Assembly (NCBI GenBank): GCA_964647865.1
Contig: CAZYJK010000002.1
Location: forward strand, 1 to 39,267
From: an uncultured Veillonellaceae bacterium
GTDB lineage: Bacteria > Bacillota > Negativicutes > UBA1444
Direction: 5' to 3'
DNA: 39,267 nucleotides
A program made the position numbers and the translations under genes. Below the pieces are notes generated by a model that did not search any database, was not told the DNA's origin, and saw only the letters and a program-made list of their open reading frames with translations. This document shows, piece after piece, positions 4,210 to 39,267 of the stretch. Every line of letters starts with the position of its first letter. The first letter of the stretch is position 1.

Positions 4210-4212
4210 CAA

Positions 4213-17951: not shown

Positions 17952-17966
17952 TCGAGAATCCCTTGT

Positions 17967-17995: not shown

Positions 17996-18061
17996 AGTTT
18001 TAATATTTAGATAGGCTACATATTCTCGGCAGCAATGGGGAGAGAGAACGCAAGAGAAATT

Positions 18062-18107: not shown

Positions 18108-18151
18108 CTAGTTTATTGAAGCAAAATCATCGATGAGGAAGGGTGGCATGA

Positions 18152-18823
18152 ATGGAAAGAAAACTTTACTCGAACGAACTGGCCGGCATTAAACAACTAA
18201 CGCTAGAAATGGGCCAGAAAACCGTTGACGCGGTTAGGTTCGCCACGCAGGCGCTTATAAGCAATGATGCGGATATCGCCGGTAAGGCGCGCAGTCTGGA
18301 GAAAGAAGTCGATGTGTTATATCGGCAGATAGATGACAGGTGCATCGTCAGTATTGCCACCCAGCAACCGATGGCCGGCGATTTGCGGTTTCTTGTCTCA
18401 ACGCTTAAAATCGCTACTGAAATCGAACGAATTGCCGATTACGCTAATAATATCGCCAAAATGGTGCAACGAAAGTTTTGTAGCGAAGACATGTCACCGA
18501 CCGAATCACTGAAACCGGCCGTCGATATCATGTCTCGCGAAGCAATCAGCATGCTGACGGAAGCGCTGACGGCGTATGAGAAGAATGATGCGGATCTGGC
18601 GATGTTGGTTCCTCAGCGGGATGCGCTGGTCAATCGGCTGAACAAGGACTTGTTCCGCAATATCCTGGCAATGGCCACCGTCAAGAAATATGCCAATGAA
18701 CTGGCGATGGACTTTCATACAGCGGTGCGCTATATCGAGCGGGTGGCCGACCGATCGGGCAATATCGCGGAATATGTGTACTATGCCGTAACCGGCTACC
18801 GTTTTCCGGATAACAAAAAGTAA
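18152..18823 (+). CDS. phoU: Phosphate-signalling regulatory protein PhoU
   Basis: 223 aa. Two PhoU repeats with the E/D-x3-D-type motifs ATEIERIADYANNIAKMV and IERVADRSGNIAEYV. Confidence 0.92.
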   Translation: MERKLYSNELAGIKQLTLEMGQKTVDAVRFATQALISNDADIAGKARSLEKEVDVLYRQIDDRCIVSIATQQPMAGDLRFLVSTLKIATEIERIADYANNIAKMVQRKFCSEDMSPTESLKPAVDIMSREAISMLTEALTAYEKNDADLAMLVPQRDALVNRLNKDLFRNILAMATVKKYANELAMDFHTAVRYIERVADRSGNIAEYVYYAVTGYRFPDNKK

Positions 18824-18870
18824 GCAATTGCAGTGAACATTTGAATCGGGGGGAGGCAGCGGCCTTGCCT

Positions 18871-19542
18871 ATGGAATGGATCCTTAGTGAATTGACAGAT
18901 GTCATGCGCCTGGTGATTGCGGCGTTTCTCGGCGGCGTTGTCGGACTGGAACGCCAGCAACGGCATAAGTCGGCAGGACTGCGGACCCATATTCTGGTGA
19001 GTCTGGGGTCTTGTCTCGTCATGGTGATTTCAATCAAAATCTATACCGGCGTTCAGGGACTGACCAATGCCGACCCGGCACGTTTGGCCGCGCAAGTGGT
19101 CAGCGGGATCGGTTTTCTTGGCGCTGGCACGATTATGAAAGAAGGCTTGACGATCAAGGGCCTTACAACCGCAGCCAGCCTGTGGGTGGTTGCAGGGGTC
19201 GGACTGGCGGTGGGTGGCGGATATTATGTCGGGGCTGTGGCGACGACGGTGTTGTCAGTACTTGCACTGACATATTTGCCGCGCTACGAACGTCTTTACG
19301 GTTGTGGACCGTCGCAGGTCGCGATGATTATCAAGTCGGTGGACAAGCCGGGGCAAATCGGCCGGGTCGGTTCTTATCTCGGCACCAAGAATGTGGCAAT
19401 CTGCGATATCAAAATCGACGAGGTCGGCAAGAATGAAATCCATATTTCGGTGATTTTAGACATGACAGACCGGCGAATGTTGCCGGATATCCTGGAAGGG
19501 CTGAAAGCAATCGAAGGAGTAAACGACGTTTGGCAGGAGTGA
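18871..19542 (+). CDS. MgtC/SapB-family membrane protein with C-terminal ACT-like domain
   Basis: FLGGVVGLERQQRHKSAGLRTHILVSLGSCLVMV is the MgtC-family signature region, followed by 4-5 TM and a soluble tail. Start is uncertain: ATG 18871, or TTG 18865 which sits 8 nt after GGAGG 18852-56. Confidence 0.85.
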   Translation: MEWILSELTDVMRLVIAAFLGGVVGLERQQRHKSAGLRTHILVSLGSCLVMVISIKIYTGVQGLTNADPARLAAQVVSGIGFLGAGTIMKEGLTIKGLTTAASLWVVAGVGLAVGGGYYVGAVATTVLSVLALTYLPRYERLYGCGPSQVAMIIKSVDKPGQIGRVGSYLGTKNVAICDIKIDEVGKNEIHISVILDMTDRRMLPDILEGLKAIEGVNDVWQE

Positions 19543-19663
19543 TTGTTGCAGGAATTGGCCGGAGTAGGGCGAACAGTACATGGAGGAACAGATTTGCAGG
19601 GTTTTACGACCGCTGAGCCGGTCGATAGGATAGAGCGAAAAGTTGAAAGGATGGGGTAGTGGA

Positions 19664-20701
19664 ATGAGAAAAGCAACAGTTATCTTGGCACTGACGATGT
19701 TTGTCATTGCGGCAATGGTCACGGGCTGCGGCGGCGGCGACAAGAAACCGGCAGAACAGCCGAAAGCCAAAGGGCCCTCCGGGACCTTGATGATTTATAC
19801 CTCGATTTACCCGGACATCGTCGAACTCGTCAAGCCGGCGATCGCCAAGAAATTTCCCGACTTAAAGGTAAACTGGTTCCAGGCAGGTTCCGAGCAGGTC
19901 ATGGCTAAACTTGCCGGTGAAATCGAAGCGAAAAAAGTGCAGGCCGATGTATTGCTTGTGGCGGATCCGGCCTATTATCTGACGCTTAAGGACAAAGGCC
20001 TGTTGATGAAATATGATTCGCCGATGCGCAAAGACATCACCGGCAACAAAGATACCGAAGGGTTCTGGACCGGCGTACGGATCAATGCCATCGTAATGGC
20101 CTATAACACAAAGAAAGTCAAGCCGGAAGAAGCGCCGAAGACTTGGCAGGAATTGTTGGACCCGAAATGGAAAGGCCGCATCGCCATGCCCAATCCGTTG
20201 TTGTCGGGAACGGCATACGTCGGTGTAGGTGCGTTGGCGCAAAAATATGGCTGGGAATACTTTGATAAACTGAAAGCAAACGGCATCAAGGTCGAATCCG
20301 GCAACACCGCGCTGCAGAACAAATTAATCCAGGGCGAGTATGATGTCGTAATCATCCTGGAAGAAAACATCCTCAAGATGGGCGCCAAGGGTGAACCGGT
20401 AAAAGTTGCTTATCCTGCCGACGGCGCGATTATCAACCCGAGCCCGATCGCCATCTTCTCCAGCGCCCAAAATCCGGAAGCCGCCAAGGCGCTGACGGAC
20501 TGGTGGCTGTCGAAGGAAGGCCAGGAAATGGTGGTCAAAGGCTGGATGCACTCGGTGCGTGACGATGTGGCCGCGCCCAAAGGCGCGCCTGCTCTGAAGA
20601 CATTGATGCCGACCGCACTCAAAATTGACTGGAACCAACTGGCGAAAGAAAATGAAAAAGTGAAAGAACAATTCCGGTCCCGGGTATTGGAAAAGAAATA
20701 A
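19664..20701 (+). CDS. ABC importer lipoprotein substrate-binding protein (SBP4), system III
   Basis: Start at MRKATVILALTMFVIAAMVTGCGG (lipobox); the ORF track starts at TTG 19643. Close paralogue of SBP2. Confidence 0.88.
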   Translation: MRKATVILALTMFVIAAMVTGCGGGDKKPAEQPKAKGPSGTLMIYTSIYPDIVELVKPAIAKKFPDLKVNWFQAGSEQVMAKLAGEIEAKKVQADVLLVADPAYYLTLKDKGLLMKYDSPMRKDITGNKDTEGFWTGVRINAIVMAYNTKKVKPEEAPKTWQELLDPKWKGRIAMPNPLLSGTAYVGVGALAQKYGWEYFDKLKANGIKVESGNTALQNKLIQGEYDVVIILEENILKMGAKGEPVKVAYPADGAIINPSPIAIFSSAQNPEAAKALTDWWLSKEGQEMVVKGWMHSVRDDVAAPKGAPALKTLMPTALKIDWNQLAKENEKVKEQFRSRVLEKK

Positions 20702-20725
20702 CTGACGTTGTTATGTCAAAGCAGG

Positions 20726-20753
20726 CGGAGGTGGAGCAACTGCTCCACCTCCG
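20726..20753 (+). other. Strong intercistronic stem-loop after the SBP4 gene, no T-tract
   Basis: GGAGGTGGAGC (20727-37), loop AACT, GCTCCACCTCC (20742-52), extended by the C20726:G20753 pair. This gives 12 perfect base pairs 25 nt after the stop codon. Confidence 0.7.
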
Positions 20754-20782
20754 TATAATGCCAGTATGCAGGGGGTTTGTTC

Positions 20783-22465
20783 GTGGGAAAAAAATGGCTT
20801 CCCCAGTGGGACACCAAATGGATCATGATTCTTTCGGCAGTAGCGTCTTTGGTCGTTTTTGTCGTATTGCCGATGCTTTATCTGGTCTACAAGAGCTTCA
20901 TCATCAATGGAACTCTGGACATACATCATTATCAAACGGTATACAGCAAGGCTGTCAACTGGAATGCGCTGAGCAATACGATCAAGGTTTCGCTGTACTC
21001 GACAGTGCTGGCCATATTGATCTCTTTTCCGCTCGCCTGGTTGATCGGCCGGACAGATTTGCCCTGGAAAGGATTCTTTAGAACGCTGTTTGTCGCAACC
21101 TATATGATTCCTCCCTATGTAGGCGCAATCGCCTGGATTCAACTGCTAAATCCGCGGGTGGGCTATGTCAATAAATTCTTGGTCGAGACGTTTCATTTGG
21201 CCGATGCCCCGTTCAACATTTACTCGATGACTGGCATGGTCTGGTGTTTGACCCTGTTCTATGCGCCTTTCGCCTTTATCACGATTTCTCGGGCGATGGA
21301 AAAGATGGACCCGACACTGGAAGAAGCTTCCCGCGTTTCCGGCGCCTCGCCGCTGCGGACGCTCTGGAACGTGACGATACCGCTGATGTATCCGAGCATT
21401 TTGGCTGGCGGCATTCTGGTATTCATCGGCGTCGCTTCCGCTTTCGGCACACCCTCGATTATCGGTATGCCGGCTAATATCGAAGTGCTGACGACCCGTA
21501 TCGTCACCTATATCTATATGGGCGATACCAAAGGGATCCAGGAGGCGACCGCTTTGGCGGTGTCACTGATGTTGGCGGCCAACGGACTATTGTATCTGTC
21601 GATGTTCGGTCTGGGCAAAAAAGAGTACGTAACCATCGGCGGCAAAAGCACCCGCCCCAATCTGGTGGAACTCGGCAAATGGAAGTGGCCGGCATTTTCC
21701 GTCGTGATGGGCTATGGCGCGATTTCAGTTTTCCTGCCGATCGGCTCGGTGCTGGTGACATCGCTGATCAAATCGATGTCCCGACCGGTGACATGGGACA
21801 ATCTGACGCTGGCAACCTGGAAAGCGGCGCTGGAAAACACCCAGTACACGGAACCACTGATGAACAGCTTCATCCTGGCGATCACCGCCGCGACGGTCGC
21901 CACCATCATCGGTATCTTCATAGCGTACCTGTTGATGAAAACAAAAGCAAAAGGCCGCAAAATCCCCGACGCACTGGCCACGCTTGGCGGAGCCACACCG
22001 GGTATCGTTATCGCACTGGCGCTGATCATTACTTTTTCCGGCAACTTTGGTCTGAACCTGTATTCCACGATGACGATTCTGGTGGTAGGCTACATTGTCA
22101 AGTATCTGACGATGTCGGTCCGTACGATTTCTGCCTCGCTTAGCCAGGTTCATCCCTCACTGGAGGAAGCGGCGTTAAACTCGGGTGCCAGCTGGCTGCA
22201 GTCATTGCGCGATATCATGTGGCCGTTGATTCGGCCTTCGGTCGTGGCAGGCTGGTTCCTTGTCTTCATGCCTTCCTTTTATGAATTGACAATGTCAATT
22301 ATTCTCTACGGTTCACAGACAAAAACCATCGGCGTGTTGCTGTATGAACTTCAGACCTATGCCGACCCGCAGGACGCATCGGTGTTGGCCGTAATCATCC
22401 TCTTGATCGTTCTGGTCGGAAACCTAGCCTTGCGCAAGGTTTCACGCGGCCAGATCGGGATTTGA
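20783..22465 (+). CDS. ABC importer fused two-domain permease, system III
   Basis: ~560 aa. EAA loops EEASRVSGASPLRTLWNVTIPL and EEAALNSGASWLQSLRDIMWPL. GTG 20783 lies 7 nt after AGGGGG (20770-75); the ORF-track TTG 20777 is only 1 nt from it. Confidence 0.88.
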   Translation: MGKKWLPQWDTKWIMILSAVASLVVFVVLPMLYLVYKSFIINGTLDIHHYQTVYSKAVNWNALSNTIKVSLYSTVLAILISFPLAWLIGRTDLPWKGFFRTLFVATYMIPPYVGAIAWIQLLNPRVGYVNKFLVETFHLADAPFNIYSMTGMVWCLTLFYAPFAFITISRAMEKMDPTLEEASRVSGASPLRTLWNVTIPLMYPSILAGGILVFIGVASAFGTPSIIGMPANIEVLTTRIVTYIYMGDTKGIQEATALAVSLMLAANGLLYLSMFGLGKKEYVTIGGKSTRPNLVELGKWKWPAFSVVMGYGAISVFLPIGSVLVTSLIKSMSRPVTWDNLTLATWKAALENTQYTEPLMNSFILAITAATVATIIGIFIAYLLMKTKAKGRKIPDALATLGGATPGIVIALALIITFSGNFGLNLYSTMTILVVGYIVKYLTMSVRTISASLSQVHPSLEEAALNSGASWLQSLRDIMWPLIRPSVVAGWFLVFMPSFYELTMSIILYGSQTKTIGVLLYELQTYADPQDASVLAVIILLIVLVGNLALRKVSRGQIGI

Positions 22466-22484
22466 CCTGAAAGGAGCCAGGATT

Positions 22485-23528
22485 GTGGCAGATGTAAAAA
22501 TCACTTCCGTAACCAAGAAATTCGGCGATGTTTTTGCAGTAAACAATTTCAATGCTTTGATCAAGGATGGCGAATTTGTCTCGATTTTAGGACCATCCGG
22601 CTGTGGCAAGACCACCATGTTGCGGATGATTGCCGGTTTTGAGCGGGCAACCGAAGGTGAAATCGCCATCGGTGACCAGATTGTCAGCAAATCGGACGCC
22701 GGGATCTTCGTGCCGCCGGAAAAACGTCATATTGGCATGGTGTTTCAATCCTATGCCGTCTGGCCGCACATGAATGTTTTTGACAATGTGGCTTATCCGC
22801 TCAAAATCCAAAAAGTGCCGGCAGATAAATTGAAGGAACGGACGGAACAGGCGCTTGATTTGGTTCACCTGGCCGAGTATGCGGCGCGGTTCCCCAATCA
22901 GCTGTCAGGCGGACAGCAACAACGCGTTGCGTTGGCACGGGCGCTTGTCGCCGAGCCGAGCTTACTGCTGCTGGACGAACCTCTGTCCAACCTCGACGCC
23001 AAGCTGCGGGAAAGCATGCGGTTTGAAATCAAGGACCTGCAGAAAAAACTCGGCATCACCGTTGTGTATGTTACGCATGACCAGGCAGAAGCGATGGCGA
23101 TGTCGGACCGGATCGTCGTCATGCACAAAGGGGTCATTCAACAAGTTGACGAACCGATCCGCGTCTACGAGCATCCTGCGAACCCGGTCGTAGCGGACTT
23201 CATCGGCCTGGTCAACTTCCTGGAAGGGGAGGCCGCTGCAGGACAGATCAGATTCAAGGCACTCGACTGTTCTATTCCGGCGAAGGTTTCTTTTGAAGGA
23301 CCGGCCCGGGTCGCCGTTCGACCGGAGCATATCCGGATTTCCAAGACCGATGGTTATTTGCGCGGAAAACTGGTCAACAAGTTTTACCTGGGCGATTCCA
23401 CAGACTGCCGGGTATTGGTTGGCGACACAGAGTTGCGGGTGATTGACCGCGGCGCAGCGTTTGCCGAATATAGCGACGGCGAAGATGTATTCCTCAGCTT
23501 CGGGCATGTGATGGCATTTCCGAAATGA
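22485..23528 (+). CDS. ABC importer ATP-binding protein, system III
   Basis: GTG start 8 nt after AAGGAG. Walker [10 protein letters not shown], signature LSGGQQQR, Walker B LLLDEPLS. Confidence 0.92.
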   Translation: MADVKITSVTKKFGDVFAVNNFNALIKDGEFVSILGPSGCGKTTMLRMIAGFERATEGEIAIGDQIVSKSDAGIFVPPEKRHIGMVFQSYAVWPHMNVFDNVAYPLKIQKVPADKLKERTEQALDLVHLAEYAARFPNQLSGGQQQRVALARALVAEPSLLLLDEPLSNLDAKLRESMRFEIKDLQKKLGITVVYVTHDQAEAMAMSDRIVVMHKGVIQQVDEPIRVYEHPANPVVADFIGLVNFLEGEAAAGQIRFKALDCSIPAKVSFEGPARVAVRPEHIRISKTDGYLRGKLVNKFYLGDSTDCRVLVGDTELRVIDRGAAFAEYSDGEDVFLSFGHVMAFPK

Positions 23529-24457: not shown

Positions 24458-25735
24458 TTATTTCTTCAAATAGTTCGGCAACCAGGTCGCCAGGTCGGGT
24501 TGCCAGGCAACGATGGCAATCGTAAGCACCATCAGCAGGGCAAAAGGCAGTACGCCGCGCAGAATTTCCGTCATTCTGGTTCCCGGCGAAATCCCCTGGA
24601 TTACGAATAGATTCATCCCGACCGGTGGCGTAATCAGTGCCAGTTCAAGATTGATCACCATGATCACGGCAAACCAGATCGGATCGAAGCCGAGTTTTAA
24701 AATCAAGGGGTAGAGTAGTGGCACCGTGATCAGGATGATCGAGATCGATTCCAGAACGCAGCCCAGGAACAACAACAAGGCGTTGATGGCCAGGAACACG
24801 ACCCAGCGACTGACAGCCATTCCTGTCACCAACTCGGTGAGCTGCTGGGGAATCTGCATGATGGTCAGGATAAAACCGTACTGCATGGCGCCGATAACGA
24901 TGGCCAGCACCATGGCGTTGCTTTTGGCCGTTTCGACCAGAATACCTGGCAGATCACGCAAAGTCAGGGTCCGATAGATGAAGAACGTGATGAACAAACT
25001 GTAAATGGTGCCGACCGCAGCAGCTTCCGTCGGTGTGAAGATCCCGGTGTAAATGCCGCCGATAATCAGCACAGGCAGGAACAGGCCCCAACTGGAATGC
25101 CGCAGTGCGGCGATTCGCTCGTCCCAGGTTGCGGGATCTTGCGACGGAACTTTTTTTGATACGAACAAAACCACATACAAGATGAACAGTCCGGTAAGCA
25201 GAATCCCCGGCACTACACCGGCCATGAACAGTTCGCCCACCGATTCGCTGGTGATGGCGCCGAACAGGATCATCGGGATGCTTGGCGGAATCAGGATGCC
25301 CAGTGTACCGCCGCCGGCAACCAACCCGAGCACCAGCTCCTTTGGGTAGCCGCGTGAAACCATCTCGGGAATCGCCACCATGCCGATCGTGACGGCCGTG
25401 GCGACGCTGGAACCGGAAATCGCCGCAAATGCGGCGCAGGCGAGGACCGTTGCAATACCAAGACCGGCAGGCAGATGGCGGACCCATTTGCTGGCGACTT
25501 CGTACAAATCATTGCCGACCCTGCCGGTAAGCAGGATTTGACTGAGCAGGATATAAAGCGGGATGGAGGACAGCACAAAGTCATCCAGCGTCTTATAGGC
25601 GATGATTGGAATCTGCGTCAACGACTGGGGGCCCATCAATACAGCGAACCCGGCCATACCGGTCAACCCGAGGCTGAATGCGACCGGCAGCCCGATTAGC
25701 AGTAGGAAAAACAACGAACCGACAATCGTAAGCAT
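24458..25735 (-). CDS. dctM: TRAP transporter large permease (DctM family)
   Basis: 425 aa, ~12 TM. Typical DctM N-terminus MLTIVGSLFFLLLIGLPVAFSLGL. One-nt overlap (TGATG) with the dctQ stop. Confidence 0.9.
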   Translation of the reverse strand: MLTIVGSLFFLLLIGLPVAFSLGLTGMAGFAVLMGPQSLTQIPIIAYKTLDDFVLSSIPLYILLSQILLTGRVGNDLYEVASKWVRHLPAGLGIATVLACAAFAAISGSSVATAVTIGMVAIPEMVSRGYPKELVLGLVAGGGTLGILIPPSIPMILFGAITSESVGELFMAGVVPGILLTGLFILYVVLFVSKKVPSQDPATWDERIAALRHSSWGLFLPVLIIGGIYTGIFTPTEAAAVGTIYSLFITFFIYRTLTLRDLPGILVETAKSNAMVLAIVIGAMQYGFILTIMQIPQQLTELVTGMAVSRWVVFLAINALLLFLGCVLESISIILITVPLLYPLILKLGFDPIWFAVIMVINLELALITPPVGMNLFVIQGISPGTRMTEILRGVLPFALLMVLTIAIVAWQPDLATWLPNYLKK

Positions 25736-26187
25736 CAGTGGCCTCCCTTCTCTGCGGCTGCAGAGTCAGGATCCAGCAAGTTGGCGATGAACTGCAATGA
25801 AAGCAATGCAAAGCCGACTGGCAGGGCCATCTGCGGCAGATAAAGCGGAACGCGCAGGGTGCTTACCGAAAGCATGTTCAACCGATAAGAGTTGAGGACC
25901 ATTTCGGCGCTGGTATAGAGAAAAACCAGGCTGAACAGCAAGCCCAGCAGGGAGACGAGAAGCTTAAGCGCCTTGTTTGCTGCGGGCGACAGATTGCTGA
26001 CGACCAAATCCACGCTGATATGTTTGCCGGCGGCCAGTGCCGGGGCAAAACCGAGGAAGGCGCTGACCATGACCAGATACACCGAGGTTTCATTGACCCA
26101 TTCGGTCGGTGCATTGAAGACAAAGCGCAACACCACTTCATAAGCAACAATAATGGCGGTCGCGAGGATGCAAATCCCCGCGATCAC
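25735..26187 (-). CDS. dctQ: TRAP transporter small permease (DctQ family); the N-terminus may extend to 26238
   Basis: 150 aa from GTG 26187 with no SD. The in-frame upstream stretch IRTFIVRLATWASRVSG is open back to an ATT at 26238, which lies 5 nt after GGTGG. Confidence 0.8.
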   Translation of the reverse strand: MIAGICILATAIIVAYEVVLRFVFNAPTEWVNETSVYLVMVSAFLGFAPALAAGKHISVDLVVSNLSPAANKALKLLVSLLGLLFSLVFLYTSAEMVLNSYRLNMLSVSTLRVPLYLPQMALPVGFALLSLQFIANLLDPDSAAAEKGGH

Positions 26188-26250
26188 GCCACTGACACGA
26201 CTAGCCCAAGTAGCCAGCCTGACAATGAATGTTCTAATTTAAACCACCGC

Positions 26251-27291
26251 CTACTTTAGGTTTTTGCAGAACTCGACCATTTGTTTGCCGACTTCGCCAG
26301 TGCGCTTGATGAACAGGGCATGCACAGATTCAGTAGCTTTTTGCCAGGCGGCGATTTCATTTTCGGGAACGACATGAACCTGCATGCCTTTTTCCTTGAG
26401 GCCTTTCAATGCCTTATCCTCTTCGTTCTTAACCTGAGCGCGGATGTCCTTTTCCACTTCTTTGGCAGCTTCCTGCACCGCTTTCTTTTGGTCGGCGGAC
26501 AGCTTGTTCCAGGATTTCAGATTCATGCTGGCGATGAATTCTGGGAAGGCGTGATTGGTAATCGTCAGGTATTTGCTGACTTCATACATTTTACGGTCCA
26601 TCATCGCTGTCGTGCCAGAAGTCTGGCCGTCGATGGTATTGCGTTGCAAGGCCATGTAAACTTCGCCTGCCCCCATTGTGACCGGCGCTGCGCCGAGCGC
26701 TTTAATCGTTTCCGAAGGCAGCTCGCCATAGCCGCGGAGTTTGAGCCCTTTGAAGTCTTCCGGCTTGGTCAGCGGGCGCTTATTGTTGGCAAACTGGACA
26801 AAACCATAGTCAACCCAGATTAGCGGTTTGACGCCCTTTTTCTCCATTTCGGCGGCCAGTTTTTCACCAACGCCGCCCTCAAGAGCTTTGGCGACCTTTT
26901 CATAGCTGGGGAACAGGAACGGAACGTCGAAGATCTCCATGACCGGGATGACCGAAGCCCACATCGCGGTGGAGTTGAGTCCGATGTCAATACCGCCGGA
27001 CATCAACGCTTCATTCATGCTCTTATCATTATATAGCTGACCGGAAGGGTAAATTTGCACGGTAACGGAGCCTTTGGATTTTTCGCTGACCTTTTTGGCG
27101 AAGTTGTCCATGCCGCGAGCCATGTGGTTGGTGATCGGCAGGTTGTGGGCAAATTTCAGGGTGACTTTTTCCGCGGCAGCCGGAGTGGACGGTGAAGCGG
27201 GCTTTGCGCCGCCGCAACCGGCGACAAAGGCGAGCAAGAAGATGGCGGCGAGTGCCGGGACAAACCAACGGGTGAATCTGCTGTTTTTCAT
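26251..27291 (-). CDS. dctP: TRAP transporter lipoprotein substrate-binding protein (DctP family)
   Basis: 346 aa. Lipobox AFVAGCGG. DctP-type body (FAHNLPITNHMARGMDNFAKKV...). Confidence 0.9.
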   Translation of the reverse strand: MKNSRFTRWFVPALAAIFLLAFVAGCGGAKPASPSTPAAAEKVTLKFAHNLPITNHMARGMDNFAKKVSEKSKGSVTVQIYPSGQLYNDKSMNEALMSGGIDIGLNSTAMWASVIPVMEIFDVPFLFPSYEKVAKALEGGVGEKLAAEMEKKGVKPLIWVDYGFVQFANNKRPLTKPEDFKGLKLRGYGELPSETIKALGAAPVTMGAGEVYMALQRNTIDGQTSGTTAMMDRKMYEVSKYLTITNHAFPEFIASMNLKSWNKLSADQKKAVQEAAKEVEKDIRAQVKNEEDKALKGLKEKGMQVHVVPENEIAAWQKATESVHALFIKRTGEVGKQMVEFCKNLK

Positions 27292-32629: not shown

Positions 32630-32669
32630 AAAAAACCGCCCCTATGGTCAAAACCGACCATAGGGGCGG
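32630..32669 (-). terminator. Intrinsic terminator of the T-box leader
   Basis: Minus strand reads CCGCCCCTATGGTC-GGTTTT-GACCATAGGGGCGG followed by TTTTTT. Confidence 0.88.
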
Positions 32670-32850
32670 ATATTCGCGGTACCACCCTACATTATAACTT
32701 TGGCCGGTTAACGCCCGGATACGCCGCATCCTTGTCAGATGAAGAGCTCATGGGTGAGTTTTCGTTGGGGGAAGCACGCCGGTTCGCAGCTAACACCGAC
32801 TCTCTGAAGTGCTTGTTTCCGCAACTTTAATCCCAGTCATCGCCGTCGTA
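32630..32850 (-). promoter_or_regulatory. T-box riboswitch leader, leucine specifier (CUC)
   Basis: Minus strand has the T-box core AGGGTGGTACCGCG (32675-32688) directly 5' of the terminator. Stem I elements: GCGATGA, CAGAGAGTCGGTG...GCTGCGAACCGG. Specifier loop GAAAACUCA with CUC at 32756-32758, followed by the conserved purine. Confidence 0.88.
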
Positions 32851-33096: not shown

Positions 33097-34605
33097 ATGA
33101 GGGAATGGCGTCGAGGTTGGCATTGGTTGATTGTTTTGTCAGTCCTGTCATTGTTGTCGGGCTCGTGCCTGTCGCTGGCTTTTGCCGCTCCGCCGACAGT
33201 CTATGATTTCAGGCTGGTGCAGGGAACAGCGGCATTGCCTGCTGTCAAGCTATACGTCGATATCATCGGTAACGGCGATGTGCCGGCCAAAGGGTTGCGA
33301 CTAGAAGATTTTAAGGCTGCAGTCGGCGGGACGCCGGCTAAAGTGACCCGCGTGACTCCGTTTGAAGACGCCAAAGAAGGCGTTGGCTTCGTGTTGCTTG
33401 TTGATATTTCCAAGTCCTTGTCGCCGGCGCAGTTTTCGCTGATGAAAAATACGCTTGCTGCTTTTGTCGATTCGATGGCGGAATCAGACAGGGTTGCACT
33501 GGCAACCTTTGGCCAGGCGGTCAAAGTGATTCAGGATTTTACCGCAAATCGCAGCAAGATCAAGGAGCATATCGCCGCCTTGTCGCCGACAGATGAAGAA
33601 ACTGCATTTTATGGCGGGATCGACAAAGCGATTGCGCTGGCCAGAGCCGGCGGTGAAGATATTCCCGGTCGCAGGGTTGTCATCACATTGACTGACGGGG
33701 TAAACGACCTGACAGGCGGTGTTAACAAAGGTGATATCGCGGAACGGTTGAAGGCCGACCCGGTTCCGTTATACCTGATCGGTTTTGTGCCAGGCAAGCC
33801 GTCCGCCGAAGAGGAAAGCGCCATTGGCGTGATGAAGACTTTTTCCCGCCTGTCGGGCGGTCGCTACTACGATGGTCGCGGCGGTGAGTGGCGAGGTATT
33901 TATTTTGCTATTTCCCGGGCAATCCGCAGTGCGTTCGTGATTGAAGCGGAGGCGACCAATCTCCGTTCGGAAGGCGCGGTTTTCCCGGTTTCGCTGACGC
34001 TTTCGGCAGCGAATAAGGTCTGGACTGAAAAGCTGGACCTGACGATTCCGGCTGGCGGTGCGGTAGTTAATTCACCGACACAACAACCGGATGCTAAGAC
34101 CGCTTCGGGTGGCAAGGCTGCTGCAAAAGATGCTGAGTCGGGTGGAAATCAGTGGCTGTGGATCGCAGCGGGCCTGGTCGTCGGTCTGTGTGCCGGTGGG
34201 ATACTGCTGTTGCGGCGACGTTCAAAATCGCCGGCAAAGTCGGTCCCGGCACCGTCGGATCCTTTGCCGCCGCCAGTGCAATCCATGCGGCAGCCTGGCG
34301 TCTTGGTCCGGTTTACGCGTTTGGATGCCGGGGCACAGTCAGAGCCGTTCGATGTGGAGATTGTTGACAGGGTGGTTATTGGTAGCGATCCCCGCGTCAG
34401 CCATCTTGTGTTTGAACAGGACGACGCAATTGCCGCTGCGCACTGCGAGATCGTTTTCGAAGCAGGACTCCTTTATGTAAGCGATCTGGCATCGCCTGGC
34501 GGAACGTATCTAAACGGGGTAGCCATCAGCGACCGCCAACGGATCGACGAACAAGATATCCTTCACTTGGGCCGCACCGAAATGAGAATTGCGTTTCCGA
34601 CCTGA
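33097..34605 (+). CDS. Signal peptide + extracytoplasmic vWA domain + single TM + cytoplasmic divergent FHA domain
   Basis: Start ATG 33097 follows GGAGG 33081-85. Signal WHWLIVLSVLSLLSGSCLSLAFA. vWA MIDAS VLLVDISKS...ALATFG...ITLTDG. TM WLWIAAGLVVGLCAGGILLL followed by RRRSKS. FHA-like VVIGSDPRVSHLVF...AAAHCEIVF...GGTYLNG. Confidence 0.88.
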   Translation: MREWRRGWHWLIVLSVLSLLSGSCLSLAFAAPPTVYDFRLVQGTAALPAVKLYVDIIGNGDVPAKGLRLEDFKAAVGGTPAKVTRVTPFEDAKEGVGFVLLVDISKSLSPAQFSLMKNTLAAFVDSMAESDRVALATFGQAVKVIQDFTANRSKIKEHIAALSPTDEETAFYGGIDKAIALARAGGEDIPGRRVVITLTDGVNDLTGGVNKGDIAERLKADPVPLYLIGFVPGKPSAEEESAIGVMKTFSRLSGGRYYDGRGGEWRGIYFAISRAIRSAFVIEAEATNLRSEGAVFPVSLTLSAANKVWTEKLDLTIPAGGAVVNSPTQQPDAKTASGGKAAAKDAESGGNQWLWIAAGLVVGLCAGGILLLRRRSKSPAKSVPAPSDPLPPPVQSMRQPGVLVRFTRLDAGAQSEPFDVEIVDRVVIGSDPRVSHLVFEQDDAIAAAHCEIVFEAGLLYVSDLASPGGTYLNGVAISDRQRIDEQDILHLGRTEMRIAFPT

Positions 34606-34630
34606 TATACTGGACTTATATACTGGACTT
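34605..34630 (+). repeat. Perfect tandem duplication, 2 x 13 nt ATATACTGGACTT
   Basis: Copies at 34605-34617 and 34618-34630. Starts on the last base of the vWA-FHA stop codon, in the 111-nt gap before the protease-FHA gene. Each copy contains TATACT. Confidence 0.9.
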
Positions 34631-34716
34631 CCGGCTCAAAAAATGCCCGGTAATTCGTGTTCGTATCCATTTCACAGTTAGGCAGGTATCGACTAATGAT
34701 TGGGAAGGTGGTAAAA

Positions 34717-36078
34717 ATGTTGAACCAAAGACCGGGGACACTGCAAAGACCATTGAAAAAAATGGTGGCAATCATTCTGGCGTTCATGGTTTTGTCGGTA
34801 GCCGCCATCATGCCGGTTGTTGCGGCAGCAACCGACGCAGACATTGAAACGATGAAGAACAGCTCGGTCCGGGTGCTGATCACACAGGGCGGCCGCCTGC
34901 TGGGCAAAGGGAGCGGGTTTGTCATCGATGACGGAAAACACATCGTGACAAACTATCACGTCATTGAGGCGGTAGAAAAACAAGGAGCGCAAGCCTGGGT
35001 GGCGCTCGGCCGCGGCCGGGACTTACTGCGGGCCCTGGAGATTCGCGCCACCTCGCAGGCAAATGATATCGCCGTATTATCGGTCGATCAAAAGCTAGCC
35101 AAACCCAGTGTGAAACTGGTGCGAAGGGAAGACATCAAAGCGGCGGAACAGGTGATCGCCGTCGGCTTCCCCGGGACCAGCGACCGGGTTGATGAAGACT
35201 GGCTGAATGCACCTGCCACCCCGACACCGGGGCAGGTAGTACAGAAACTGCGTCTGGGCGGCGGCGCCCACATGGTTCAGATTACGGCGGACATCAACCC
35301 GGGCAACTCGGGTGGGCCGGTATTCAATAGCCGAGGTCATGTGATCGGGATGTCCACCCTTAAAGGAAGATCATCCTCTCTCAATTATGCAGTCGATTCC
35401 GATGAAATCATGGAAGTGATCAAACGGACCAATGCGGTCGCTGAAAGAGCGCCGGCAGCCGGTTCGATTTCGGGTACGAAAGAGCAGCCGGTGACCGCGC
35501 CGCCGGCGACGGACACGAAACCGGCGACTCCGCCGCCGCCCCCTCCGCCCGAACCCTTCTACCAAAATCCGATGGTGCTCGGGGGCGGAGCAGTCGTATT
35601 GATTTTGATCGGCATCATCGGCTATATGATGTCGCGCAAGAAGAGCCCGCAACAAATGCAGATGCCGATGCAACCTCACATGCAACCACAGATGCCGCCA
35701 CAACAGATTCCGCAAGGAGCGCCGCCGGCTGCGCCCAAACCGACAGTCGCCGCTGCTGTGAAACGAACGACGATTAGTGGCGTAAGTGGATTTTTTGCTG
35801 GCAAAACGATTGAAATCGCGACCGGCAGACCGATGTTGATCGGGCGTGACCCGCAACAGGCACAGCTGGTTTTCCCTTCAGAGATGAGCGAAATCAGCCG
35901 GGTGCATTGTATCGTGACCTATGATGCCGCCAGCCAGGCATTCACAGTTGAAGACCGGTCCACGAACGGCACGTTCTTTGTGAACGGCCAGAAAATAAAC
36001 GGACAGGCGCGACTGCGTTCTGGCGAACGGTTCTACCTGAGCGACCCGACGCACTTGTTCGAACTGCGTGCAGACTGA
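34717..36078 (+). CDS. Signal/anchor + extracytoplasmic trypsin-like (S1C) serine protease + Pro-rich linker + single TM + cytoplasmic canonical FHA domain
   Basis: ATG 34717 lies 5 nt after GGAAGGTGG. Catalytic triad contexts VTNYHVI, NDIAVL, GNSGGPVF. PPPPPPPEP linker. TM MVLGGGAVVLILIGIIGYMM followed by SRKKS. Q/M/P-rich segment. FHA LIGRDP...ISRVHC...RSTNGTFFVNGQKI. Confidence 0.9.
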   Translation: MLNQRPGTLQRPLKKMVAIILAFMVLSVAAIMPVVAAATDADIETMKNSSVRVLITQGGRLLGKGSGFVIDDGKHIVTNYHVIEAVEKQGAQAWVALGRGRDLLRALEIRATSQANDIAVLSVDQKLAKPSVKLVRREDIKAAEQVIAVGFPGTSDRVDEDWLNAPATPTPGQVVQKLRLGGGAHMVQITADINPGNSGGPVFNSRGHVIGMSTLKGRSSSLNYAVDSDEIMEVIKRTNAVAERAPAAGSISGTKEQPVTAPPATDTKPATPPPPPPPEPFYQNPMVLGGGAVVLILIGIIGYMMSRKKSPQQMQMPMQPHMQPQMPPQQIPQGAPPAAPKPTVAAAVKRTTISGVSGFFAGKTIEIATGRPMLIGRDPQQAQLVFPSEMSEISRVHCIVTYDAASQAFTVEDRSTNGTFFVNGQKINGQARLRSGERFYLSDPTHLFELRAD

Positions 36079-36080
36079 CG

Positions 36081-36815
36081 ATGACGGTCGATACTGCCAT
36101 GCTGTCCCATACGGGCGGACGCAGAAGCAATCAGGACTCGTTCGGTTACGAGGCGAATCAAGTCAAGGGCTGCTGGGTCGTTGCTGATGGACTAGGCGGT
36201 CATGCGGGCGGTGAAACCGCCTCTCGCATGGCCGTGGACTCGGTTTTGTCGAGATTCCGTCAGGAAACCGATGTTTCGCCGAATTCAATTGAATCGTGTT
36301 TGCAAACCGCCCATCAGGCGATTCAAGTCAAGGCAGCCGCCGAGTATGAATTGGCGGCAATGCGGACTACCTTGGTCGTTTTGGCCTGGACAGGAAAACA
36401 AGCCGTTTGGGGACACGTGGGCGATTCACGGTTATATTGGTTCCGCCAGGGAAAAATCTTTCACCAGACAAAAGATCACAGCGTGCCGCAAATGTTGGTT
36501 GATGCAGGTAAATTGGACCCCTTGCAAATTCGGGGGCATGAGGATCAGAATCGACTGACCCGGGCGGTAGGGCAAGCAGGAGCATTGAAAACTTCGGTGT
36601 TGCCGGAAGCGTTGGCATTGCAGCCTGGCGATGCGGCGTTGCTATGCAGCGACGGAATCTGGACCTATGTGTTGGAAGCTGAACTGGAAGCGGATTGGGC
36701 AAGGGCGGCTTCGGCGACAGAGTATCTGGCGCTGTTGGAACGAAGGGTGTTGGAACGCGCCGAACCGGAACACGACAACTATACTGCCATCGCAGTCCGG
36801 TTCCCGGGAGAATGA
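36081..36815 (+). CDS. PP2C-family Ser/Thr phosphatase (soluble)
   Basis: 244 aa. RRSNQDSFG, VVADGLGGH, CSDGIW, HDNYTAIAV. Start lies 2 nt after the preceding stop. Confidence 0.9.
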   Translation: MTVDTAMLSHTGGRRSNQDSFGYEANQVKGCWVVADGLGGHAGGETASRMAVDSVLSRFRQETDVSPNSIESCLQTAHQAIQVKAAAEYELAAMRTTLVVLAWTGKQAVWGHVGDSRLYWFRQGKIFHQTKDHSVPQMLVDAGKLDPLQIRGHEDQNRLTRAVGQAGALKTSVLPEALALQPGDAALLCSDGIWTYVLEAELEADWARAASATEYLALLERRVLERAEPEHDNYTAIAVRFPGE

Positions 36816-36819
36816 ATAG

Positions 36820-37953
36820 ATGACGAATGATAAGATCAAGCTGCCGACGGTGACCCCCGGCAATGCCCAACACGTGGGCGCTCGCAGCGAACAACAGGAT
36901 GCATTTGGCTTTTCGGCGTTTGATGATGCGGAATTTGTTGAACATGCCGGTGTTTTGGCGATTGTTGCCGATGGAATGGGCGGAATGGCAATGGGACGGG
37001 AAGCTAGCGCTATCGCCGTTCGGACTTTTCTTACCTCCTATGCCGCCAAAGAAAAGCAAGAAAAAATCGCCGCCGTCATGGTGCGCGGGCTGCATGCAGC
37101 CAACCGGGCGGTCAACCGTAAAGCGGCGGAAGCCGGGGTGGAAGGCGAAGCAGGCACCACATTGGTCGCGGTGGTCATCCACGAGGGAATGCTCTACCGC
37201 ATAGCCGCCGGAGATAGCCGTATCTATTTATTCCGAGAGAGTGTATTACGACAGTTGACCACGGACTTCAATTATGGACGGGTGCTTGACCGCATGGCAG
37301 AGGATGGAGAAATGAGCCGCAGTGAAGCTGCCGCGCACCCTTCCCGCGCCGCGTTGACCAGTTATCTTGGCAAGGCCGAGGTCGATGAGTACGATTCGCC
37401 GACAGATGCGCCGCTTGCCTTGCAGCCGGGCGATAAAATCTTGTTAGCGAGTGACGGGTTGTTTGGCTTCCTCGATGAAATGGAAATTGCAAGGCTGATG
37501 ACTCAAACTCCGCAACATGCGGCTGAAAATTTAATTGAAGCAACGCTTAAACAGCAACATCCCTATCAGGACAATGTCACCGTTGCCATTTTGGGCTATG
37601 AGTTGCCGCCCCCGCCGCCATTGGCAGAAACGCAGCTGCGCAAGGCAGAACCGGACAAAACGGTGGCGGAGAAACCGCGCCAGAAAAAAAAGCCTGCCGG
37701 AACGGTGCTGAAAATCGGTGTGCTGCTTTTGGTACTGGCGGTGGCGGCTTTTTGGGGCGGACGTTACTATTTTGAAAACAGCATGCGGGAACCGACGTCG
37801 GAAAATCTGACCGACAAGGCGGAACCAAAGCCAATTGAAAAATCTTTGGAGAAACCTTTGAATAAGTCATCGGAGAAGCCGCCAGAGAAGTCTGCGGAGA
37901 ATCCGGCGGAGAAAAAGGACGCACAGGGTGCAAATAAACCTAAGTCTCAATAG
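36820..37953 (+). CDS. PP2C-family Ser/Thr phosphatase with C-terminal TM anchor and extracytoplasmic E/K/P/S repeat tail
   Basis: 377 aa. RSEQQDAFG, IVADGMGGM, ASDGLF, YQDNVTVAI. RQKKKPAGT then TM VLKIGVLLLVLAVAAFWGG. Tail is EKSL EKPL NKSS EKPP EKSA ENPA EKKD. Start lies 4 nt after the preceding stop. Confidence 0.9.
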   Translation: MTNDKIKLPTVTPGNAQHVGARSEQQDAFGFSAFDDAEFVEHAGVLAIVADGMGGMAMGREASAIAVRTFLTSYAAKEKQEKIAAVMVRGLHAANRAVNRKAAEAGVEGEAGTTLVAVVIHEGMLYRIAAGDSRIYLFRESVLRQLTTDFNYGRVLDRMAEDGEMSRSEAAAHPSRAALTSYLGKAEVDEYDSPTDAPLALQPGDKILLASDGLFGFLDEMEIARLMTQTPQHAAENLIEATLKQQHPYQDNVTVAILGYELPPPPPLAETQLRKAEPDKTVAEKPRQKKKPAGTVLKIGVLLLVLAVAAFWGGRYYFENSMREPTSENLTDKAEPKPIEKSLEKPLNKSSEKPPEKSAENPAEKKDAQGANKPKSQ

Positions 37954-38024
37954 CTGGGCACCAAGGAATAGACTGTTGACACCCGGAATTACCGGAGATG
38001 CTTACATGAAAGGGGAATAATACC

Positions 38025-38690
38025 ATGGCGCTGATTCGTTGCCAACAAGGCCATTTCTATGACCCGTCCCGACATAATGTCTGTCCTTACTGCGGCAGCA
38101 TGCCTGCCGGAGGTCCCGGTGCAACGGAGGCGCAACCGCCGATGGCTCCGCCGCCAATGGTTGGCGGGCCTGCACCGGTTGGTGCAACCAGGCCGCTACG
38201 CGATAATCCTCCTCCGGTCGTAGGGCCGACCGTGCCTTTGCGCCCAGCCAGTCCGCCGCCGGTTGGCGCAAAAAAAGGACCGGAAGAAGGCAGAACGGTG
38301 GCCGTGGATATGAAGAAAGTCGGCCTTGACCCTGTTGTTGGCTGGCTGATTTGTGTCAAAGGTCCATCGAGGGGCCGTGATTATCGAATCCGTAGCGGAC
38401 GCAACGGGATCGGGCGGTCCGAAGCGATGGACGTGCAGATTGCCGGTGATGATACCGTTTCACGCGAAAATCATGCGTTTGTCGTTTATGAACCGCGCAA
38501 ACGCACATTCAGCATCCGGCCCGGCGATGGGCGCGGCTTGGTTTATCTCAATGGCGATGAAGTGATCCAGGCCTCGGATATCAAATCATACGACATTATT
38601 GAACTGGGTGAGACCCAATTGATGTTTGTCGCTTTGTGCGGCGATAAATTCAACTGGGATCAAGGCAAGGAAGAAGCAGGCGATAAGTAG
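38025..38690 (+). CDS. Zinc-ribbon + Pro-rich linker + FHA-domain protein (cytoplasmic adaptor)
   Basis: 221 aa. N-terminal CQQGH-x9-CPYCG. Linker with repeated PPPV(V)G-x-T-x-PLR. FHA GIGRSEAMDVQI...VSRENHAFVV...VYLNGDEV. Confidence 0.88.
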   Translation: MALIRCQQGHFYDPSRHNVCPYCGSMPAGGPGATEAQPPMAPPPMVGGPAPVGATRPLRDNPPPVVGPTVPLRPASPPPVGAKKGPEEGRTVAVDMKKVGLDPVVGWLICVKGPSRGRDYRIRSGRNGIGRSEAMDVQIAGDDTVSRENHAFVVYEPRKRTFSIRPGDGRGLVYLNGDEVIQASDIKSYDIIELGETQLMFVALCGDKFNWDQGKEEAGDK

Positions 38691-38722
38691 GCTTTGGCCG
38701 GTTAACCGCAGAGGGAGTGTAG

Positions 38723-39267
38723 ATGATGAACGCATGGGAGACCTTATGTCCGGGTTGTTTCGCCGAAAAAGGACCGGTTGCGGTCTGTCCCTATTGCGGC
38801 TACGATGAGTCTGAACGCCGGACGCCTCTGCTATTGCCGCATCGAACTGTTCTAAACGGCCAGTTCATTGTGGGAAAAGTGCTGGGTAAGCCTGGTGGCT
38901 TCGGCATTACTTATCTGGGCTGGGACATCAATCTGGCAACGCCGGTGGCAGTCAAGGAATACTTGCCGCGCGACTACGCCGGACGCGACTCCGATCATGC
39001 TTCTGTCATGGCGCATTCGCGGGAAGATGCCAGTCTGTTTCGCTTCGGGTTGGAGCAGTTTTTGCAGGAGGCCCGGACATTAGCCCGCTTTGACCATCCC
39101 AACGTGGTGCGTACCCGCAGCTTTTTTGAACAGAATGGAACAGCCTATCTGGTGATGGATTACCTGCAGGGCGTTAATTTGTCCGAATATCTGACGTCCA
39201 AGGGCGGTCGCCTGAACGAACAACAAGCCGGCGAGATCATGTTGCCCATACTGGACGGATTGCAGGA
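38723..39267 (+). CDS. Ser/Thr protein kinase with N-terminal zinc ribbon (5' partial, runs off the window)
   Basis: Not in the ORF track because the frame stays open to the window end. Hand translation from ATG 38723, 5 nt after GAGGGAG: MMNAWETLCPGCFAEKGPVAVCPYCG...GKVLGKPGGFGITYLG (Gly loop)...PVAVKEY (catalytic Lys)...FLQEARTLARFDHPNVV...AYLVMDYL. Confidence 0.9.
   Translation, partial: MMNAWETLCPGCFAEKGPVAVCPYCGYDESERRTPLLLPHRTVLNGQFIVGKVLGKPGGFGITYLGWDINLATPVAVKEYLPRDYAGRDSDHASVMAHSREDASLFRFGLEQFLQEARTLARFDHPNVVRTRSFFEQNGTAYLVMDYLQGVNLSEYLTSKGGRLNEQQAGEIMLPILDGLQ

Follow-up and report, generated by a model that had tools for sequence, protein, structure and literature searches.

Protein kinases of the Hanks type, PP2C phosphatases and FHA domains, the readers of phosphothreonine (pThr), are common in bacteria, and the output is known for few of the systems in which they participate. 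A cluster of six genes, denoted here A to F, at the end of a 39,267-nucleotide stretch of DNA (hereafter the window) from an uncultured Veillonellaceae bacterium (Negativicutes, UBA1444; contig CAZYJK010000002.1 of assembly GCA_964647865.1) combines all these components with a vWA domain and a trypsin-like protease, each predicted to face outwards and each joined through a transmembrane (TM) helix to a cytoplasmic FHA domain. What would a cytoplasmic phosphorylation circuit control by means of two proteins whose working parts lie on the other side of the membrane? We read this architecture as a variant of Hanks-kinase/PP2C/FHA signalling that is undescribed in the literature searched, and the locus as the form that a widespread and self-contained membrane module of Ser/Thr phospho-signalling takes in this lineage. 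Phospho-dependent assembly of the module would position outward-facing effectors; to this reading, together with the mechanism that we infer for it, we assign a probability of about 0.45. The wiring of the module is compact and widely conserved, and its sole non-signalling parts are the outward vWA domain and the outward protease, each tied to a cytoplasmic phospho-reader. Should the reading hold, bacteria would be seen to use Ser/Thr phosphorylation not only on cytoplasmic targets but also to govern what happens in the periplasm or on the cell surface.

The databases offer only generic names for the A-F proteins (such as 'VWA domain-containing' and 'trypsin-like peptidase domain-containing') and no characterization, and the literature searched holds no account of vWA-TM-FHA or protease-TM-FHA proteins, only of related modules. 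The possibility, raised in an earlier interpretation of this DNA made from the nucleotide sequence alone (hereafter the sequence-only reading), that the same architecture has already been characterized under another name thus found no support in either source.

Domain architecture and predicted topology of the cluster

The six co-directional open reading frames (ORFs) extend from 33097 to the end of the window at 39267 and are separated by junctions of 111, 2, 4, 71 and 32 nt, in agreement with the sequence-only reading, and every domain named there was recovered by Pfam, all matches of A-F exceeding the gathering score. The genes and their salient features are as follows.

33097..34605, + strand: gene A, 502 aa; signal peptide, beta-sandwich with inserted vWA domain (predicted outside), TM helix, degenerate FHA domain (predicted inside)
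33403..33417, + strand: MIDAS (adhesion site dependent on metal ions) of A, D103-I-S-K-S107 (DISKS), read from the sequence
34153..34230, + strand: TM helix of A, residues 353-372 by sequence and 353-373 in the AlphaFold2 model, followed by RRRSKS (positive-inside)
34300..34593, + strand: FHA domain of A, with GS428-429, AAAH446-449 and SPGGT466-470; pThr-binding residues replaced
34717..36078, + strand: gene B, 453 aa; N-terminal signal or anchor segment, HtrA/DegS-like S1C protease without PDZ domain (predicted outside), Pro-rich stalk, TM segment, canonical FHA domain (predicted inside)
35836..36039, + strand: FHA domain of B, with GR376, S394-R-V-H397 and S-T-N417-G-T; fully canonical
36081..36815, + strand: gene C, 244 aa; soluble PP2C
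36820..37953, + strand: gene D, 377 aa; PP2C (predicted inside), TM segment 296-314, Lys/Glu/Pro-rich outer tail, PstP-like layout
38025..38690, + strand: gene E, 221 aa; Zn ribbon 1-25, disordered Pro-rich linker, Thr91 (TVAV), FHA domain 104-203, C-terminal CGxxFxW
38295..38297, + strand: Thr91 of E, candidate phospho-acceptor in the motif (E)xGxT-[VI]-x-[VMLF], 11 residues before DPVVGW
38723..39267, + strand: 5′ part of gene F; Zn ribbon C9..C25 and Hanks-type kinase, 181 of 541 aa inside the window

The Pfam matches are VWA (8.5e-15) and FHA (5.3e-9) in A, Trypsin_2 (1.1e-23) and FHA (2.3e-13) in B, PP2C_2 in both C (5.1e-19) and D (5.9e-13), FHA in E (4e-5; 24.4 bits against a gathering score of 20.7) and Pkinase (2.3e-12) in the part of F that lies within the window. 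Protein A begins with a signal peptide of the cleavable type (residues 1-30, with AFA before and AP after the cleavage point); in B, a hydrophobic segment occupies the N-terminus and SRKKS comes directly after a TM segment at 286-305; and the TM segment of D is preceded by KKK. Judging from the signal peptide, the TM segments and the flanking basic residues, the vWA domain and the protease are predicted to lie outside, as is the tail of D, and all FHA, PP2C and kinase domains inside. The same placement of the vWA, protease and FHA domains had been proposed in the sequence-only reading, and it is borne out not only by the charges flanking the TM segments but also by a fusion protein of Nitrospirota described below.

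Conservation was assessed in a sample of loci from a scan in which each species was represented by one genome and aligned A-homologues served as the query. The scan returned 54 loci, the ORFs of which were assigned by hidden Markov models (HMMs) built on the domains of the window; counts out of 55 refer to this sample with the locus of the window itself (L003) counted once.

The catalytic or ligand-binding residues of both outward domains, reported as intact in the sequence-only reading, are indeed present (DISKS in A; H81, D117 and S198 in B). In A, the MIDAS residues D103, S105, S107, T169 and D200 are invariant in alignments of 17 and 48 sequences, and DxSxS is kept in all 57 vWA ORFs from related loci. 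The AlphaFold2 model of A (mean predicted local distance difference test score, pLDDT, of 84.9) comprises a beta-sandwich with the inserted vWA domain (37-316), a disordered stalk of 25 residues between the ectodomain and the TM helix, the helix itself, a disordered linker and the FHA domain (402-499); strands 37-88 and 280-316 flank the vWA domain proper (97-277), such that vWA and beta-sandwich are combined in one protein. The FHA domain of A is a different matter: it reads GS, AAAH and SPGGT where the canonical residues are GR, SxxH and (S/T)xNGT. Among 54 aligned A-type FHA domains, those of most phyla are canonical, whereas every sequence from Negativicutes has other residues in place of the phosphate-binding Arg, Ser and Asn (variants GS, AAAH or A/SPxH, and SPGGT-like). 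No other segment of the cluster evolves as fast as this domain, which shows 60-77% identity within Negativicutes; the vWA domain shows 67-93% identity across Negativicutes metagenome-assembled genomes (MAGs). Given the loss of the pThr-binding residues, phospho-dependent clustering of A is doubtful in Negativicutes and plausible in the other phyla.

A clade of vWA-TM-FHA proteins with degenerate FHA residues is found in L041, L046, L049, L050, L052, L053, L055 and L057-L059 (Acidobacteriota, 'Multivoraceae'). Kinase, PP2C and E genes alike went undetected in most of these loci; L046 and L057 have a single kinase each beside the vWA gene. The clade may have left the phospho-module.

Protein B, for which public gene calls use an upstream ATG at 34696 that extends it to 460 aa, retains the contexts of the complete catalytic triad (TNYH81V, ND117IAVL and GNS198GGP). 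Its sequence matches in the PDB are to protease domains only, namely those of Deg5, HhoA, HtrA1 and DegS; no PDZ domain was matched by Pfam, the protease domain being followed instead by the Pro-rich stalk, TM segment and FHA domain, and the scores against the NCBIfam HtrA/DegS/DegP equivalog models are at most 76 bits, with cut-offs of at least 250. The protease domain (34909-35352) is 92-100% identical across Negativicutes, an unusually strong constraint for an outward-facing domain. B-type FHA domains are canonical in 26 of 26 sequences (GR, SxxH, S-T/K-N-G-T). The FHA-mediated clustering proposed in the sequence-only reading is accordingly plausible for B and doubtful for A, in Negativicutes at least. 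In the linkers of A and B, inspected for conserved Thr residues, none was convincing.

Fusions of a PrsW-family intramembrane protease with a C-terminal FHA domain were encountered within kinase/PP2C/FHA clusters at L023:15050-16369, L036:14734-16029 and L060:4137-5561, with the FHA domain scoring best as the B type in L023 and L060. A more general interpretation of the multi-TM-FHA proteins of other phyla as PrsW-FHA fusions was discarded, since the HMM search confirmed just these three; the idea of two site-1 protease families in such clusters is for this reason a side note only.

Proteins C and D are active-looking PP2C phosphatases, one soluble and one membrane-anchored, judging from their intact metal-binding motifs (NQD, DGLGG, SDG and DNYT in C; QQD, DGMGG, SDG and DNVT in D). 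Against a Stp1/IreP-type model C scores 163.9 bits, under the cut-off of 230; it is 63-88% identical across Negativicutes MAGs.

Protein E, a soluble adaptor, consists of a Zn ribbon (ligands C6, H10, C20 and C23) and an FHA domain that retains GR and SR, with loops that read SRENH and GRG; in the AlphaFold2 model (pLDDT 80.9 overall) both parts are confidently predicted (about 91 for residues 1-25 and above 92 for the FHA domain). The E-type FHA domain is strongly conserved across phyla, with the consensus DPVVGWLVC...GRDYR...IGR...ISRENHA...GRGLVYLNG...CGExFxW. The family is large (840 clusters at 50% identity for E<=1e-30, and 3722 at 1e-10), and public metagenome contigs that encode protein E are numerous (1229 index blocks); with the former number of clusters, a function found for E would annotate thousands of genes. 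PDB searches with the single sequences of A and E gave no match, and profiles were needed to find relatives. By Foldseek and profile search, the closest folds of the E FHA domain are FhaA (Rv0020c), GarA, OdhI and DgcB, with ArnA in 42nd place. The FHA domains of GarA/OdhI and DgcB bind their own phosphorylated N-terminal segments, as the titles of PDB entries also indicate. In E, the Thr91 motif is present in 36 of 38 full-length orthologues across phyla and is nearly invariant in an alignment of 37 sequences, and in the model this residue is located at the very end of the low-confidence, disordered Pro-rich linker, directly before the confidently folded FHA domain.

The part of F, a receptor-type Hanks kinase, within the window contains the Zn ribbon (C9, C12, C22 and C25), a Gly loop and VAVK78. 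The sequence past 39267, sought since the window truncates the gene, completes the kinase:

L003:10699-12324: full-length F, 541 aa; Zn ribbon, kinase, Pro/Ala-rich linker, one TM segment and a Pro-rich outer tail of about 100 residues ending in GSLW

In this full-length form the Pkinase match rises to 4.8e-32, the HRDIKPQN and DFG motifs are present, and no PASTA domain is matched by Pfam. The cluster does not end at the kinase, as described below.

Recurrence of the module and direction of signalling

The closest genome is a Sporomusaceae MAG with 84% identity for A, and the same genes recur far beyond this lineage. The core set consists of the Zn-ribbon-FHA adaptor, vWA-TM-FHA, PP2C-TM, HtrA-like-protease-TM-FHA, soluble PP2C and Zn-ribbon-kinase-TM proteins. 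Among the 55 loci, 42 have PP2C genes, 41 kinases, 39 an E-type protein and 26 a protease-TM-FHA protein; A, E, PP2C and kinase occur together in 37 of the 55, from at least eight phyla, and 24 of these 37 also encode the protease-FHA protein. A gene set that recurs beside A-homologues to this extent is not due to chance. The carriers include, in addition to Negativicutes, Nitrospirota (Candidatus Magnetominusculus), Desulfobacterota (Desulfuromonadales, Desulfobacter and Syntrophales), other Bacillota, Methylococcales, Chromatiaceae-like bacteria, Acidobacteriota, Actinomycetota (Solirubrobacteraceae) and Rhodothermota (Roseithermus), the usual gene order outside Negativicutes being E, A, PP2C-TM, protease-TM-FHA, PP2C, kinase; Methylomonas, Methylovulum and Roseithermus are examples of carriers that can be cultured. 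The recurrence of vWA-TM-FHA and protease-TM-FHA fusions in other genomes, a point left for a search by the sequence-only reading, is thereby established. All-against-all clustering of the flanking ORFs of the 55 loci revealed no further family that recurs across phyla; hence the core is self-contained.

The catalytic motifs are kept across the sample (protease 24/27, MIDAS 57/57, PP2C 64/75, kinase 55/58), and 52 of the 58 cluster kinases carry an N-terminal Zn ribbon. In eight loci of magnetotactic Nitrospirota, D and B are merged into a single protein of about 700 aa:

L019:9526-11640, and also in L021, L022, L026, L027, L031, L032 and L051: PP2C-TM-protease-TM-FHA fusion

This fusion implies that D and B are functionally tied, and supports the in-out-in topology. 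The tie between the vWA protein and the protease is looser. Minimal loci of the Methylomonas type consist of kinase, E, A and PP2C only, with a vWA-TM-FHA protein and no protease, and conversely, trypsin-TM-FHA proteins occur in Hanks-kinase/PP2C/FHA clusters without a vWA-TM-FHA gene (L061:7044-8486, L062:9001-10275 and L063:9001-10530); such clusters always include kinase and PP2C genes, and one adjoins a PASTA kinase. Each being found without the other, the two are not an obligate pair, and the capture-and-cleave partnership proposed for them in the sequence-only reading has to be given up in that form.

The ectodomains of the kinases in related loci are unrelated to each other (TPR, Sel1, FGE-sulfatase, MORN, or a Pro-rich tail only), whereas A, B and E are conserved. 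Given this pattern, and given that FHA domains are readers, we take the kinase to be the more likely sensor, to which the FHA-bearing proteins would respond. In the preferred reading, F would be activated via its own variable ectodomain and would phosphorylate threonines on the cytoplasmic parts of the module, the best candidate site being Thr91 of E, which stands where a disordered linker ends, in a pT-x-x-hydrophobic context, and F itself being another candidate. The canonical FHA domains of B and E, and in other phyla that of A as well, would read the pThr marks; their docking would assemble or dissolve a membrane complex and so alter the site and timing of protease and vWA-ectodomain action in the periplasm. 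The signal would thus travel from the outside (kinase) to the inside (pThr) and back to the outside (protease and vWA), and C and D would reverse the phosphorylation and reset the system.

Several considerations weigh against this scheme. The SRENH and GRG loops of the E FHA domain are non-standard, and Thr91 could be conserved for structural reasons instead. As judged from its residues, the degenerate FHA domain of A in the lineage of the window means that at least one arm of the phospho-dependent assembly cannot work canonically. The argument for the direction of signalling comes from the distribution of the variable parts alone, and the loci, sampled with a single peptide pattern taken from A, do not form an unbiased census.

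In the main alternative the signal would run in the opposite sense, from outside to inside, with the cluster acting as a PpkA-like receptor split among several proteins: A would be a ligand sensor or co-receptor, the tail of which modulates the kinase, E, once phosphorylated, would be the output adaptor for targets encoded elsewhere, in the manner of ArnA, and the protease would trim the sensor or its ligand and so start or terminate signalling. PpkA itself is a kinase with a vWA domain (PMC1262709), as stated in the sequence-only reading, and such a scheme would fit the constancy of the A-E pair, E being mostly encoded directly upstream of A, as well as the composition of the minimal loci, the invariance of the full MIDAS, the ArnA-like layout of E (Zn finger and FHA) and the disordered stalk of A, which in the model would be open to a protease. 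We nevertheless consider it somewhat unlikely: the kinases bear diverse sensor-like ectodomains of their own, so that a second sensor is not obviously needed; an FHA domain, being a reader, makes A a responder to phosphorylation rather than its source; and the degenerate, fast-evolving FHA domain of A in Negativicutes leaves the link between A and the kinase uncertain in this scheme as well.

Genes specific to Negativicutes and the genomic neighbourhood

In Negativicutes, the kinase gene is followed on the same strand, at 48 and 31 nt, by genes G and H in every sufficiently long locus. Protein G (143 aa) carries a signal peptide, is predicted to be secreted and has no Pfam match. The product of H, which lies outside the window, combines a CsgG domain (2.7e-25) with a FlgT_C-like C-terminal domain; there is no lipobox Cys within its signal peptide, and no CsgA/B/E/F-type genes were recognized among the annotated neighbours. 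Next comes a convergent gene for a paralogous kinase with a Zn ribbon, a kinase domain, a TM segment and extracytoplasmic MORN repeats, and beyond it a gene of the CCA/poly(A) polymerase type, with those for a polysaccharide deacetylase and a chemoreceptor. G, the CsgG-like H and the MORN kinase are confined to Negativicutes and absent from the other phyla that keep the core, and we therefore regard them as a lineage-specific addition.

The extracytoplasmic C-termini of three of these proteins are alike, namely GSLW in F (L003:12310-12324), (T/N)SLW in G (L003:12790-12804) and GSFYW in the MORN kinase (L003:13877-13891, - strand), and every orthologue retains these aromatic tails, even in the case of G, whose overall identity is only 58-92%. 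An apparent variation in kinase length among the sister contigs L001, L002 and L004 was initially a candidate for phase variation, which was rejected in view of a run of N in the Pro/Ala-rich region of L001 (about 11650-11850); the kinases missing from the public gene calls in these three loci probably reflect scaffold gaps, that is, an assembly artefact, the conclusion for L002 and L004 being extrapolated from L001.

A known machine downstream, which the cluster would merely regulate, had been envisaged in the sequence-only reading. The CsgG-like H is the one find of this kind, but it is restricted to Negativicutes and lacks the other curli genes. Accordingly, it appears improbable that the Negativicutes cluster mainly serves to regulate a CsgG-like outer-membrane channel and its client G, and thereby to control how a surface fibre or another envelope component is exported or assembled. 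The invariable position of G and H after F and the strictly conserved GSLW/TSLW end common to the outer tail of F and to G, with GSFYW in the paralogous kinase, accord with such a function, but all other core-bearing phyla dispense with G, H and the MORN kinase, and neither the recognizable gene complement nor the signal peptide of H conforms to the curli type.

In the terms of the kinase-sensor reading preferred here, Negativicutes would have gained the secreted protein, the CsgG-like protein and the second kinase, and the conserved SLW/FYW tails may mark ligands or substrates in this lineage. A version that assigns the tails a more definite part is an inside-out switch, in which cytoplasmic pThr, written by the receptor kinase and read by the FHA tails of the single-pass proteins, would gate adhesion, capture and proteolysis on the outside through the integrin-beta/ArnB-like vWA ectodomain and the HtrA-like protease. 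In Negativicutes, the SLW peptides of F and G would be bound by the MIDAS or cut by the protease; in this specific form the proposal strikes us as unlikely.

Upstream of the cluster, on the opposite strand, lies a leu operon with a T-box leader ahead of leuA.

32659-32849, - strand: T-box leader, RF00230, 87.4 bits in a permissive search against a gathering score of 93
32918-32890, - strand: near-consensus sigma-70 promoter of the T-box leader, from the sequence
32669-32636, - strand: terminator hairpin with a 15-bp stem followed by a T-run, from the sequence

The score of the leader being below 93 bits, the default Rfam scan missed it, and at the gathering threshold Rfam gave no match in the window. 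The synteny of the flanks with the leu operon is kept across Negativicutes, down to 56% identity of A, and B, E and F are under strong purifying selection in this lineage; both facts point to a cellular rather than a mobile function. Elsewhere in the window, positions 6629-23528 apparently contain several similar sets of ABC transporter genes (one 352-aa solute-binding protein and three permeases of 545-562 aa were checked), a TRAP transporter is encoded at 24458-27291 and M20 peptidases at 2288-5664, a nutrient-uptake neighbourhood without signs of mobile elements.

Among the Pfam-annotated genes within 10 kb there are no type VI secretion system (T6SS), Tad, RodA/PBP or NTPase genes, and likewise no nuclease or toxin domain; the lack of T6SS, RodA/PBP and ATPase partners observed in the sequence-only reading thus extends over the wider region. 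These neighbours bear on the possibility that the cluster is a kinase/PP2C/vWA system of the kind that comparative genomics has proposed for biological conflict or phage defence, with the protease as its effector. A triad of Zn-ribbon kinase, PP2C and vWA protein is described as attached to GTPase conflict systems (Kaur et al. 2020; PMC7159879), the spread of the module across phyla is patchy, and PADLOC yields matches for the kinase (mad6/PD-T4-6), the protease (RT-protease) and PP2C (PDC-M21C). However, these are generic domain-level matches only, and A, E, G and H match nothing; the genes within 10 kb include neither a GTPase nor MoxR or any other NTPase, and neither nuclease nor toxin domains; the flanks are housekeeping genes in conserved synteny; and the 92-100% conservation of the protease, at loci whose other genes have drifted apart, is the reverse of what an arms race would leave. 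A conflict function thus seems highly improbable.

Comparison with known systems

The parallels named in the sequence-only reading, PpkA-PppA-Fha1 and FhaA/B-PstP-PknA/B, are apt as far as they go, but the closest solved relatives were overlooked (see below). The T6SS threonine-phosphorylation pathway of Pseudomonas aeruginosa brings a Hanks kinase of the membrane together with a PP2C, an FHA adaptor and a vWA domain in one switch, as the present module does; in contrast to that pathway, T6SS genes are missing within 10 kb, the vWA domain is carried by a separate FHA-bearing protein rather than by the kinase as in PpkA, a T6SS pathway kinase (PMC1262709), and the TagH/Fha model TIGR03354 gives 18-24 bits on the window proteins against a cut-off of 120. 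The actinobacterial FhaA-FhaB-PstP-RodA-PbpA-PknA-PknB cluster likewise encodes FHA proteins, a PP2C-TM protein with an outer tail (the layout of PstP and D) and membrane Hanks kinases, whereas the cluster studied here lacks RodA/PbpA genes and PASTA domains (53 bits with the PknB_PASTA model, cut-off 450) and adds the vWA and protease ectodomains.

The minimal loci of Methylomonas resemble two operons described in bacteria: DRA0331-DRA0334 of Deinococcus radiodurans, which encodes a vWA protein, a kinase, a FraH-like FHA protein and an FHA-PP2C protein (bioRxiv 10.64898/2026.01.23.701218), and YegI-PphC(YegK)-YegL of Escherichia coli, with a Hanks kinase, a PP2C and a vWA protein (bioRxiv 10.1101/819920, 10.1101/303594). 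By the descriptions in these papers, on which the comparison is based, the vWA protein is not reported as a TM-FHA fusion in either operon, and there is no protease-FHA protein. The triad of Kaur et al. shares with the module an active kinase with a Zn ribbon, an active PP2C and a vWA protein, side by side, but there the vWA protein stands alone and the triad is attached to GAP1-N2 GTPase conflict systems (PMC7159879). Here GTPase, tubulin and HSP70 are missing, the vWA protein is secreted and fused to TM-FHA, and conservation with housekeeping synteny takes the place of diversification. The module also differs from the MoxR-vWA/GTPase conflict systems, with no NTPase within 10 kb and no recurring third component across the 55 loci, and from curli-type secretion, H being devoid of a lipobox Cys and no CsgA/B/E/F being annotated nearby.

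In its HtrA/DegS-like protease domain, membrane anchoring and outward orientation, B resembles the membrane-anchored HtrA proteases of the DegS/RseA type; the site-1 protease PrsW (PrsW/RsiW) is represented in related loci by the three PrsW-FHA fusions given above. B has no PDZ domain and carries a cytoplasmic FHA domain in the regulatory position, and neither an anti-sigma/sigma pair nor a site-2 protease is found nearby.

The closest solved relatives of the module are the archaeal proteins ArnA and ArnB. In Sulfolobus, ArnA (Zn finger and FHA) and ArnB (vWA, beta-sandwich and a phosphorylated helical C-terminus) regulate archaellum expression together with the kinases ArnC and ArnD and the phosphatase PP2A (PMC6509490, PMC12852372). 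The profile of the A family against the PDB has among its best matches the FHA domain of ArnA (5a8i, 6e-13), the ArnA/ArnB complex (chain 8s05_C) and the vWA domain of ArnB (8s05_A, 2e-10). Foldseek with the A model retrieves ITIH1 (inter-alpha-inhibitor heavy chain), ArnB (8s05_A, 2e-12), its paralogue vWA2 (5a8j and 4fx5 match too), a Catenulispora vWA protein and integrin beta headpieces, every one of which combines vWA with a beta-sandwich. Both systems pair a protein containing a Zn finger and an FHA domain with a vWA/beta-sandwich protein under the control of Ser/Thr kinases and phosphatases, E reproduces the succession of Zn finger, linker and FHA domain seen in ArnA, and the A model superposes on ArnB and vWA2. 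The differences are, however, substantial. ArnA and ArnB are soluble and cytoplasmic, whereas the vWA/beta-sandwich protein of the module is predicted to be secreted and membrane-tethered; the vWA domain being outside the membrane, the Zn ribbon of E cannot contact it in the way that ArnA contacts ArnB. In place of the phosphorylated C-terminal helical domain of ArnB, which is bound by the FHA domain of ArnA, A has a TM helix and an FHA domain; the ArnA-like FHA domain is here on A, that of E being nearest to FhaA, GarA and OdhI; the phosphatase is PP2C instead of PP2A; and a protease-FHA partner is added. If our reading of the locus is correct, the archaeal ArnA/ArnB pair would be linked to a large bacterial family.

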